Shown: one piece after another, positions 10,821 through 28,049 of the stretch
How the letters are laid out: each line of letters begins with the position of its first letter
Position numbering within the stretch: position 1 is the first letter of the stretch
DNA from: Escherichia coli
Lineage (GTDB): Bacteria > Pseudomonadota > Gammaproteobacteria > Enterobacterales > Enterobacteriaceae
Reading direction: 5' to 3' (one strand)
Assembly (NCBI RefSeq): GCF_045037415.1
Contig: NZ_CP173438.1
DNA length: 64,000 nt
Notes under the pieces: model-generated
Database searches by the model: none
What the model was told of the DNA's origin: nothing
Seen by the model: the letters and a program-made list of their open reading frames with translations, nothing else
Program-made: the position numbers and the translations under genes

Positions 10821-12834
10821 TTATCTGAAAATTAAAGATGTATGTGATTTTGTCGGAGGAAGTCAACCTCCAAAATCTCAATTTATTTATGTATCTAAAC
10901 CTGGATATGTCAGGTTGATCCAGACGCGTGATTACAAAACGGATGCATTTCCCACGTATATACCAATATCGTCGACGAAGAAATTTTGTGATGAATTCGA
11001 TATTATGATTGGTAGGTATGGTCCCCCAATTTTTCAAATATGTCGCGGATTGAAAGGAGCATATAACGTTGCCTTGCTGAAGGTTAGGTAATGACTCCAA
11101 CTTATTGATAGTGTTTTATGTTCAGATAATGCCCGATGACTTTGTCATGCAGCTCCACCGATTTTGAGAACGACAGCGACTTCCGTCCCAGCCGTGCCAG
11201 GTGCTGCCTCAGATTCAGGTTATGCCGCTCAATTCGCTGCGTATATCGCTTGCTGATTACGTGCAGCTTTCCCTTCAGGCGGGATTCATACAGCGGCCAG
11301 CCATCCGTCATCCATATCACCACGTCAAAGGGTGACAGCAGGCTCATAAGACGCCCCAGCGTCGCCATCGTGCGTTCACCGAATACGTGCGCAACAACCG
11401 TCTTCCGGAGCCTGTCATACGCGTAAAACAGCCAGCGCTGGCGCGATTTAGCCCCGACATAGCCCCACTGTTCGTCCATTTCCGCGCAGACGATGACGTC
11501 ACTGCCCGGCTGTATGCGCGAGGTTACCGACTGCGGCCTGAGTTTTTTAAGTGACGTAAAATCGTGTTGAGGCCAACGCCCATAATGCGGGCTGTTGCCC
11601 GGCATCCAACGCCATTCATGGCCATATCAATGATTTTCTGGTGCGTACCGGGTTGAGAAGCGGTGTAAGTGAACTGCAGTTGCCATGTTTTACGGCAGTG
11701 AGAGCAGAGATAGCGCTGATGTCCGGCGGTGCTTTTGCCGTTACGCACCACCCCGTCAGTAGCTGAACAGGAGGGACAGCTGATAGAAACAGAAGCCACT
11801 GGAGCACCTCAAAAACACCATCATACACTAAATCAGTAAGTTGGCAGCATCACCGAAGGTTATACCTAAAGAAGGTGTAAGTCGTGATTTTTTATACTAT
11901 TTTTTGAAGCAAGACTCTGTTTTCCAATATGTTGATAAATTATCTGCCAGAACCGGAGGACAAACTGGAGTTGATCTAGTTTCTTTAAAAGAATATCCAG
12001 TCAGGATACCTGAAGAAATTGAATGTCAAGAAAAATTGGTGACTATTCTTAGTGTTATTGATAAAAAAATCGCCCTCAACAACCGCATCAACACGGAACT
12101 GGAAGCGATGGCGAAAACACTGTATGACTACTGGTTTGTACAGTTTGATTTCCCTGATGCCAACGGAAAACCGTATAAAACCTCCGGCGGGAAGATGGAG
12201 TATAACGCCACGCTGAAACGGGAAATTCCGGCAGGTTGGAATGACTCCATTCTTGGTAAGTTTATTGAGTTAGATCGTGGCGTTACTTATAGCAAAGAGG
12301 ATGTTCGAACTCAGGATGATAAAGATACGATAGGCATTCTTCGCGCTACAAATGTGACGGGAAATAATGTTGATATTGATGATTTAGTCTTCATTCCTTC
12401 TAGTAGAGTAAACGTTAATCAAATGCTAAATAAATTTGACATATTGATCGTGATGTCAAGTGGTAGTAAGGAGCATGTAGGGAAGAATGGCGTGTATTAT
12501 TTCGAAAAAAAAACATGCATTTGGCGCATTTTGTTCAAAAATTACACCCGTCAGAAAATACAGATATTTTATAAATACATTCCTGCAATCGAAATGGTTT
12601 AAGTCTTATATAAACAATCAGTGCTTGGGAACTAATATTAATAACCTGACCAATACGCATATCACTAATTGTGAAATCATATGCCCCACTCCTGATGTTG
12701 TGGCGTTATTCGAGAATAAAATGATGCCAATTTATAATAAACTGGCATCAAACACTCAAGAGAATAGTCATTTAATCCAACTCCGCGACTGGCTCCTCCC
12801 TCTACTTATGAACGGACAGGTCACGGTCAAATAA
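10810..12834 (+). pseudogene. hsdS: Type I R-M specificity subunit, interrupted by IS1 and by a frame break
   Basis: N-terminal segment 10810-11086, IS1, then 11854-12602 in frame 0 and 12487-12834 in frame 1; conserved C-terminal ..LRDWLLPLLMNGQVTV present. Confidence 0.8.
11087..11853 (-). mobile_element. insAB: IS1 insertion sequence (insA 11524-11799, insB 11102-11605)
   Basis: Terminal repeats ggtaatgactccaac... and ...ggcagcatcacc; InsA and InsB ORFs; flanked by direct repeat GAAGGTTA. Confidence 0.9.
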
Positions 12835-13176
12835 TCCCCGGCGTGGTTTTGCGAGGCGCATTCCAGATCCGCATTGCGCCGCACTCACCGCAGCAAAACC
12901 GCTTGCCGTTCATAACCGATCGCAGTATCTTTCTCCCGCGCCTGCAAAATCAGGCGTCGGGATTAGCCTCCTGAAAACCGTTACAGGCGACACTTGACGC
13001 ACCAGCGTCTTTTTTGTGTCGTGCGTTCGGCTACACCTCAATGGCGGGCCGGGCGGGGGCGTCGCAAGACGCGCCGGTTTCCTGTAACGCCGGTAAGGCT
13101 AACCCCGTCCGGTTCCGCCCCCATGAGATTAGCCTCTCTAGTGGCGGACATAATAAACCGTTACAGGAGACGCCCT

Positions 13177-13647
13177 ATGGCTACAATCCTCATCTCTGAC
13201 TGCGATTTACTCGATCTATTGTCCGCTCCCTTCAATGCCACCACGGATTTCACCGTCCTGGCCGACTACTGCGCCCGCTTCGCCGAAACCCTGATAGAAA
13301 CCGACGATCCGGCGCTGCGGCTGGCGCTCTGCGGACGGCTTCACGCGGCTCTTGCGCTATTGCAACCCACGCTGCACGACCCCATCCCGCCGCATCTGAT
13401 TGAAAGCCTGACCGTTGATACCCTTCCCGCCACACCAGAGCACTTTATTTCCGAACCAGATTCCTTGTGCGAATACTGCCTCGCGCTGCTCCAGCTACTG
13501 CTGGAACGTCCAGCAGAGCCAAAAACGGAACAAACCCTGACCGGGCTTCTGTGTGAGCTGGTCTGGAATTTCACGGAAGGACTCAAATCCCCGCGCTGGC
13601 TGCGTACCGCCGACGGCGTAAAATTTATCAGTGAGGTGGCCGCATGA
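13177..13647 (+). CDS. Hypothetical protein, 156 aa
   Basis: ORF with AGGAG 7 nt upstream of ATG at 13177; the longer track ORF from 12994 is rejected as the start. Confidence 0.5.
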
Positions 13648-26417: not shown

Positions 26418-26419
26418 GC

Positions 26420-28049
26420 TTATTCTTGCTCCAGCATCGCATTCACCCACGCGTCGAGGTTGGCGAAGGTCGGTTTGGACGCCAGATGCAGCAGCTTACG
26501 CCCGGCGTCCACCGCCAGCAGCGTCGGTTTGCCGCCTGCCTGCGCCACCAGCACAGTGCGCACGCATTCCAGCAAAGAATGTTCCGCCCGCGCCTGCTGT
26601 TCCATGGCGTTGGCTAGCGGGTCCATCAGGCAGTAGCAGATAAACACGCCTAAAAACGTCCCCACCAGAGCCGCCGCCACTTTCAGGCCAATCAGAGCGA
26701 TAGATCCATCAATCGACTGCATGGTGATGATGATGCCCAGCACCGCCGCGCAAATACCAAATCCCGGCATCGCTTCGGCGGTACGTTGCAGCGAGCGCGA
26801 CGGCGTTAACAGGGACTCTTCCGCGGTGTCCAGTTCCTGATCGAGAATGCCTTCCAGCTCATGGGCGTCGATTTTACCCATCGCCATCAGGCGAAAGTTA
26901 TCAGCAATAAAGGTCACCAGCCGCTTCTGGGTTAACACCAGCGGGTATTTCTGGAAAATGGTGCTCTCTTCCGGCTGCTCAATATGCTGATCCAACATCC
27001 GCAGACCGCCGTTTTGCACCATTTCGAGCAACTCATACAGGCACATTAATAGCTGACGCTGAAACTCCGGCCCGAGCTGTTTTTTACTGATCACGCCTTT
27101 AATTTGATGGGCAATCTCTTTCAGCACATGTTTCGGGTTACCAATAATCATCGCCCCGAAACCGGCACCCAAAATAATGATCATTTCCGCCGGTTGCCAG
27201 ATAGCCACTAATTGCCCGCCCGCTTCAAAATAACCGCCAAATACGCAGCCGAGCACCACCAGTAAACCTAATATTTTTTGGGTGATGCTGCCAACTTACT
27301 GATTTAGTGTATGATGGTGTTTTTGAGGTGCTCCAGTGGCTTCTGTTTCTATCAGCTGTCCCTCCTGTTCAGCTACTGACGGGGTGGTGCGTAACGGCAA
27401 AAGCACCGCCGGACATCAGCGCTATCTCTGCTCTCACTGCCGTAAAACATGGCAACTGCAGTTCACTTACACCGCTTCTCAACCCGGTACGCACCAGAAA
27501 ATCATTGATATGGCCATGAATGGCGTTGGATGCCGGGCAACAGCCCGCATTATGGGCGTTGGCCTCAACACGATTTTACGTCACTTAAAAAACTCAGGCC
27601 GCAGTCGGTAACCTCGCGCATACAGCCGGGCAGTGACGTCATCGTCTGCGCGGAAATGGACGAACAGTGGGGCTATGTCGCGCCAGCGCTGGCTGTTTTA
27701 CGCGTATGACAGTCTCCGGAAGACGGTTGTTGCGCACGTATTCGGTGAACGCACTATGGCGACGCTGGGGCGTCTTATGAGCCTGCTGTCACCCTTTGAC
27801 GTGGTGATATGGATGACGGATGGCTGGCCGCTGTATGAATCCCGCCTGAAGGGAAAGCTGCACGTAATCAGCAAGCGATATACGCAGCGAATTGAGCGGC
27901 ATAACCTGAATCTGAGGCAGCACCTGGCACGGCTGGGACGGAAGTCGCTGTCGTTCTCAAAATCGGTGGAGCTGCATGACAAAGTCATCGGGCATTATCT
28001 GAACATAAAACACTATCAATAAGTTGGAGTCATTACCTATTTTTTGCAT
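26420..28049 (-). pseudogene. lafT: Lateral flagellar motor protein MotA homologue, interrupted by IS1 after codon 4
   Basis: ATG CAA AAA ATA at 28049-28038, IS1 at 28037-27278, duplicated codons 2-4 at 27277-27269, remainder of MotA-like ORF to 26420. Confidence 0.8.
27278..28037 (+). mobile_element. insAB: IS1 copy (insA 27336-27611; insB with 11-bp internal deletion)
   Basis: IS1 termini; 9-bp target duplication TATTTTTTG on both sides; 760 bp as printed. Confidence 0.9.

Follow-up and report, generated by a model that had tools for sequence, protein, structure and literature searches.

Two oppositely oriented IS1 copies around 15.4 kb of native chromosome form a probable latent recombination substrate in an Escherichia coli genome

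The 64,000-nucleotide stretch of Escherichia coli DNA analysed here (the window; assembly GCF_045037415.1, contig NZ_CP173438.1) carries two copies of the insertion sequence (IS) IS1 in opposite orientation, one in hsdS (copy 1) and one in lafT (copy 2). We conclude, at a probability of roughly 0.9, that these are two unrelated and ordinary IS1 insertions which lie in opposite orientation by chance, that the DNA between them retains its ancestral orientation, and that the pair is a passive substrate for recombination. A first-pass annotation had described two inverted IS1 copies around about 15.4 kb of core genes and had proposed that recombination between them would invert this segment. The two opposite-orientation copies are borne out by an inverted-repeat search of the whole window and by the terminal repeats of the elements. 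The IS1 terminal repeats also show the outer coordinates given there, 11087 and 28037, to be exact, and with limits set from the same repeats the copies lie 15,426 bp apart, so that its approximate size was right as well. The elements and their flanks are listed here, with target-site duplications abbreviated as TSD and the left and right terminal inverted repeats as IRL and IRR.

11079 to 11086: left TSD of copy 1, GAAGGTTA (8 bp), overlapping the empty site of reference L001 (22080-22087)
11087 to 11854, minus strand: IS1 copy 1, 768 bp, intact, IRR at the left and IRL at the right; insA at 11524-11799, insB' open reading frame (ORF) at 11102-11605, A6C frameshift motif
11855 to 11862: right TSD of copy 1, GAAGGTTA (8 bp)
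26420 to 27280, minus strand: body of lafT/motA, codons 2 to end, with Pfam domains MotA_N and MotA_ExbB; start codon cut off by copy 2
27272 to 27280: left TSD of copy 2, TATTTTTTG (9 bp), overlapping the empty site of reference L002 (38273-38281)
27281 to 28037, plus strand: IS1 copy 2, 757 bp, IRL at the left; insA intact at 27336-27611, insB' put out of frame by the loss of 11 bp after 27677; base substitutions at 27713 and 27755
28038 to 28049, minus strand: right TSD of copy 2 (28038-28046) and the orphaned lafT start codon, reading ATGCAAAAAATA on the minus strand

Both elements show every feature by which membership of the IS1 family was judged. Both ends of the imperfect terminal inverted repeats, GGTGATGCTGCCAACTTACTGAT and GGTAATGACTCCAACTTATTGAT, are present in each copy. 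Against the approximately 768 bp of the family, copy 1 measures 768 bp and copy 2 measures 757 bp, that is, 768 bp minus an internal 11 bp. The duplications are of the 8-9 bp typical of IS1, namely 8 bp for copy 1 and 9 bp for copy 2, as checked against the empty sites in L001, L002, and L003. In the coding region, insA precedes insB', which is in the -1 frame, and there is an A6C slippery motif; this frameshift motif, TTAAAAAAC, is found at IS position 305 in both copies. Pfam searches assigned InsA to PF03811 (E=1e-21) and PF12759 (E=5e-31), and InsB to the IS1 DDE transposase PF03400 (E=2e-78). In copy 1, insA is intact and the insB' frame is open.

The two copies constitute the sole long inverted pair in the window, and their similarity is far beyond chance. 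A small indel splits this pair into two arms, one of 403 nt at 100% identity (11455-11857/27278-27680) and one of 371 nt at 99% identity (11085-11455/27669-28039). Relative to copy 1, copy 2 has an 11-bp deletion (IS positions 398-408) and substitutions at IS positions 444 and 486. Perfect identity between the copies is thus confined to tracts of 397 bp (IS positions 1-397), 35 bp, 41 bp, and 282 bp (IS positions 487-768). The deletion shifts insB' of copy 2 into an early stop, and the RefSeq annotation (Prokaryotic Genome Annotation Pipeline, PGAP) calls the same copy "frameshifted" in p4A; because of this deletion, copy 2 is unable to make transposase.

The history of the segment can be read from its junctions, its relatives, and the differences between the two copies. 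Matched with one another, the four IS-flank junctions describe two simple insertions, and each copy lies between direct TSDs of its own. From end to end, both IS sites included, the window is collinear with p4A, which lacks copy 1, and with 18044 and 22726, which lack both copies at these sites. This collinearity with genomes lacking copy 1 places the segment in its ancestral orientation. We looked for a past inversion in the form of swapped TSDs or an orientation opposite to that of relatives and found neither: the TSDs match within each copy, and the orientation is that of the references L001-L004. None of the three private markers of copy 2 has been lost, and the element agrees at 100% identity with copy 2 of other genomes of sequence type 131 (ST131), which argues that no markers have been exchanged between the copies. 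The window itself is 99.99-100% identical to E. coli O25b:H4-ST131 genomes.

The two insertions differ in age and distribution. A junction query for copy 1, with 200 bp taken from either side, matched none of 5,426 complete E. coli genomes, and copy 1 is a recent insertion private to this strain. Matches to a larger query had put forward 18044 and 22726 as carriers of copy 1; these were rejected, as the element in each is an IS1 isoform of 93% identity located elsewhere in hsdS. IS1A-type copies on many enterobacterial plasmids match copy 1 at 100% identity, and a plasmid-borne IS1 may, judging by this identity, plausibly have been its source. Copy 2 was inserted after codon 4 of lafT, the lateral-flagellar motA of the Flag-2 cluster, and the intact motA of strain 18044 represents the empty site. 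With both native flanks, copy 2 is present in 55 complete genomes; its right junction was found in 55 and its left junction in 58, and the three surplus genomes belong to pig and human non-ST131 strains that carry another IS1 isoform (IS1A) with different right flanks. More than 50 of the 55 have a copy 2 that is 100% identical, deletion included. Copy 2 is older than copy 1 and marks an ST131 sublineage of at least 55 sequenced genomes. Since all 55 keep both native flanks, none of them has fixed a rearrangement ending in copy 2.

Several further observations concern copy 2 and its target. At the lafT site of ST131 isolate NZ_OY019088.1 (18201-18968) there is a full-length, 768-bp IS1 that keeps both copy-2 substitutions. 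Either this copy represents the ancestral state and the 11-bp deletion arose later in situ, or a short patch was converted. A 757-bp IS1 on plasmid NZ_PV023077.1 (98529-99285) is 100% identical to copy 2, including the deletion, and an IS1 on the unrelated chromosome NZ_CP158317.1 matches it at 99.9% identity; the variant with the deletion has apparently spread, via trans-mobilisation or conversion. In genomes with the lafT insertion, RefSeq calls motA intact (867 versus 864 nt), with a start placed 6 nt inside IS1 at a non-canonical ATC (27281-27286 of the window; the call in L003 is 20921-21787). This call masks the separation of the gene from its ATG, its ribosome-binding site, and the upstream operon. 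In several non-ST131 E. coli, among them PEC389, ZH177, and EC09, an IS1A occupies the same site at the lafT start or one very close to it, with other DNA beyond. It may be that IS1 repeatedly targets the lafT start or that Flag-2 deletions end there.

Three points weigh against reading the segment as ancestral in this strain. Some of the cells may form a subpopulation with the inverted segment. If the assembly was made from short reads only, the assembler or a reference may have set the orientation of a segment lying between 768-bp repeats. The pairing of the junctions, moreover, tells how the copies arose and not what orientation is present in every cell. One may go further and suppose that the orientation shown is merely the choice of the assembly and that the genome, or a large part of the population, carries the inverted isomer, given that an inversion between IS copies produces no junction by which it could be recognised and escapes short-read sequencing (PMC5009759). 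We consider this unlikely: the 64 kb of the window run without a break across three IS elements, as is more usual in a long-read or hybrid assembly, its order agrees with every related complete genome, and the internal markers of copy 2 sit together with copy 2 flanks.

Other explanations for the pair would give it a common origin or a function. IS1 classically makes adjacent deletions and duplicative inversions, and an intramolecular replicative transposition of copy 2 into hsdS would have produced copy 1 and inverted the DNA between, leaving two inverted copies around a segment as found here. Such an event would leave one split target duplication, but each copy has its own matched direct TSD. 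The segment is also oriented as in genomes without copy 1, copy 2 has a dead transposase, and copy 1, which lacks both the 11-bp deletion and the two substitutions of copy 2, is not its daughter; the probability of this origin is close to nil. Inverted IS1 pairs can also form transposons, as in Tn1681, and the whole 16.95 kb might have arrived, or be movable, as a composite unit with proBA, phoE, crl, gpt, dinB, and their neighbours. The intact outer IRR ends (11087 and 28037) and the intact transposase frames of copy 1, with their predicted function, fit such a unit. Its outer flanks differ, with GAAGGTTA at the left and TATTTTTTG at the right, and each recurs on the inner side of the IS copy that it adjoins, which argues against insertion as a unit. 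The interior is no foreign cargo but native chromosome, found in the same place in genomes without one or both copies, and the window contains no second copy of the unit; IS1 composite transposition, in addition, drops steeply with length. We therefore regard a composite transposon as highly unlikely, although future mobilisation from the intact outer ends by the copy 1 transposase is conceivable from the layout of the elements.

The location of one end in hsdS, which belongs to a class of genes that undergo shuffling by inversion in other bacteria, and of the other in a flagellar gene could suggest a programmed, phase-variable invertible element that switches hsdS or the lateral-flagellar stator genes. 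The repeats are whole IS copies instead of short recombinase sites, and no intact site-specific recombinase adjoins them, the integrases of the nearby genomic island being pseudogenes or fragments. The break in hsdS is paired with lafT and not with a second half of hsdS, so no alternative hsdS could result; from this anatomy, IS1 would stay at both junctions and no new fusion or promoter junction would form. Copy 1, moreover, is private to one strain. We give a programmed switch practically no weight. A looser version supposes that the segment flips appreciably and that its orientation matters, through the orientation of replication relative to transcription or through read-through of dinB, crl, thrW, or lafTU downstream of the hsdRM operon, so that IS copies would have built a reversible switch private to this strain; this, too, appears extremely unlikely. 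The IS1 pair is not a regulatory device, and two unrelated insertions around an uninverted segment remain our preferred account.

The bracketed segment and the flanking part of hsdS contain the following features.

10810 to 11086, plus strand: 5' fragment of hsdS, mapped from the intact hsdS of p4A; its translation enters IS1 and then stops
11855 to 12834, plus strand: 3' fragment of hsdS, in which the homopolymer that ends at 12505 is one A longer (A9 versus A8)
13041 to 13996, plus strand: ash family gene, hypothetical gene, and integrase fragment of the thrW island, mapped from the p4A annotation
14011 to 14086, minus strand: thrW, tRNA-Thr (CGT), identified with ARAGORN
14201 to 25423: backbone genes, with proA, proB, crl, frsA, gpt, prfH, rtcB, yafP, and dinB on the minus strand and phoE and pepD on the plus strand, from ORFs and the RefSeq annotation of collinear genomes
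25494 to 26417, minus strand: lafU, lateral-flagellar MotB-like stator gene

All genes that the first-pass annotation had placed between the copies (thrW, proBA, phoE, crl, frsA, gpt, pepD, prfH, rtcB, yafP, dinB, and lafU) are indeed located there, but its list left off lafT/motA and about 2.2 kb of DNA of the thrW island. Its description of the segment as core genes is accurate in part only, since this island DNA, which consists of the 3' part of hsdS, the ash gene, the hypothetical gene, and the integrase fragment, lies inside the bracket. The hsdS gene encodes the specificity subunit of a type I restriction-modification system and belongs to an island between yagU and thrW, which also holds AbiEi/AbiEii and integrase pseudogenes.

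The hsdS gene and its island show additional variation. The homopolymer at 12497-12505 is A9 in the window and A8 in all three references compared, and the ORF stops early, at 12602 and not near 12834; this frameshift is either decay of an already dead hsdS or a homopolymer sequencing error. Three independent IS1 insertions have occurred in the same 1,248-bp hsdS within ST131, at 11086 in the window and at the equivalents of 12294 in 18044 and 12653 in 22726. The latter two (L002 22519-23287 and L001 22878-23645, respectively) are of the 93%-identity isoform and have mutually opposite orientations. The repeated hits in hsdS may stem from a preference for AT-rich targets or from selection that favours the loss of restriction. 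In NZ_OY019088.1 (4773-5006), the entire thrW island is gone, and the integrase fragment of the yagU side abuts thrW. The island borders in the window are direct repeats of about 260 bp that are 74% identical (2209-2466 and 13796-14055).

When inverted IS copies recombine, the intervening segment is inverted, with an IS remaining at either end and without any new junction between IS and flank, so that the event goes unseen by short reads (Lee et al. 2016, PMC5009759). A fixed IS1-IS1 inversion has been recorded in the long-term evolution experiment (LTEE) with E. coli (Raeside et al. 2014, PMC4173774). For the present pair, the proposal that recombination would invert the segment has the geometry right, and as a conditional statement it follows from this established knowledge; neither a past inversion nor a function, by contrast, is apparent from the sequence. 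A RecA-dependent crossover in the 397-bp or the 282-bp identity tract would invert 15,426 bp. We infer that these two tracts are adequate RecA substrates and that rare inverted isomers are to be expected in large recA+ populations. In any search for such isomers, PCR across the 768-bp repeat can make chimeras that mimic recombinants; furthermore, an "inverted" junction is the reverse complement of an existing one, so that only linkage spanning the whole IS is informative.

Inversion would disrupt no further gene and form no fusion, given that hsdS and lafT are already broken and that IS1 would stay at both junctions. Its likely consequences concern the direction of replication. The plus strand of the window has a GC skew of -0.033, and the counts on the plus and minus strands are 4:10 for Chi and 0:5 for FtsK-orienting polar sequences (KOPS). 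This negative skew, together with the Chi and KOPS bias, indicates that the replication fork moves from right to left in the window. From its map position in K-12, the locus presumably lies in the right replichore, with which the skew agrees. Within the segment, the leading (minus) strand carries 11 of the 13 backbone protein genes, thrW, all four Chi sites, and the single KOPS. Inversion would turn the 11 genes and thrW head-on to replication and bring Chi and KOPS into the non-permissive orientation. We expect the inversion to be rare and neutral to slightly deleterious.

In comparison with known systems, the pair behaves as inverted IS pairs in general do, offering a latent substrate for recombination, and this is already known biology. 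LTEE population Ara-1 carries a 1.49-Mb "RRE-IS1" inversion, and the inversions in the LTEE range from 164 kb to 1.8 Mb (Raeside et al. 2014, PMC4173774). The present case resembles the LTEE IS1 inversions in having a near-identical inverted IS1 pair on one chromosome, for which the same outcome would be predicted, with an IS at each end. It differs from them in its parental orientation, its size of 15.4 kb, and its confinement to a single replichore, as well as in the 11-bp deletion and two substitutions of one partner, which would mark a crossover. Tn1681, a heat-stable enterotoxin transposon, was reportedly found by So, Heffron and McCarthy in 1979 to have inverted IS1 flanks, whereas Tn9 has direct IS1 arms. 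As in Tn1681, the arms here are inverted, the outer ends are intact, and at least one transposase has intact frames and is predicted to be functional. Unlike in Tn1681 and Tn9, the outer target duplications differ, the interior is native, and the length is about 17 kb, classical IS1 transposons being much shorter. Duplicative inversion and adjacent deletion by IS1 likewise yield two inverted copies around a segment as an end product. Duplicative inversion, however, splits one target duplication and inverts the segment, whereas here each copy has its own TSD, no inversion is found, and the copies differ. IS-driven genome rearrangement has reportedly been described by Seferbekova et al. in IS-rich lineages of Escherichia and Shigella, in which, as here, accumulated IS copies are the substrates of recombination; in contrast to those lineages, ST131 has few IS1, with about 3-10 matching places per chromosome among the matches listed.

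Outside the bracketed segment, the window contains an IS3-family element of 1,432 bp at 32560-33991, with orfA at 32602-33132 and orfB at 33237-33959 (NF033516, E=4e-89). It is absent from the ST131 references and is the second strain-private IS in the window. Its ends read TGAACTG[C/A]ACCCCAAA, and it is located in the centre of a palindrome resembling repetitive extragenic palindromic (REP) sequences (GCGTTT|IS|TTTACGCCGCATCC) in the lafA-fliD spacer, where a 3-bp duplication, TTT, borders it. In size and choice of target the element matches IS1397. Directly beside it, at 33992-34220, there are tandem 111-nt units of 89% identity, which are present in the references, too; this pair is probably a REP/bacterial interspersed mosaic element (BIME) cluster in the lafA-fliD spacer.

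In conclusion, we report here two IS1 insertions in opposite orientation around 15,426 bp of E. coli chromosome. Inverted IS pairs are common in E. coli and their potential for inversion is textbook knowledge, so the potential of this pair to invert is of little significance in itself. A short-read assembly cannot settle the orientation of the 15.4-kb block, for which long reads are needed. The 11-bp-deleted IS1 in lafT, lafT::IS1(Δ11), provides a clean lineage marker for an ST131 sublineage. The isolate has lost the type I specificity gene of its thrW island to IS1, and two more ST131 isolates have lost it independently, through insertions at other positions in hsdS.

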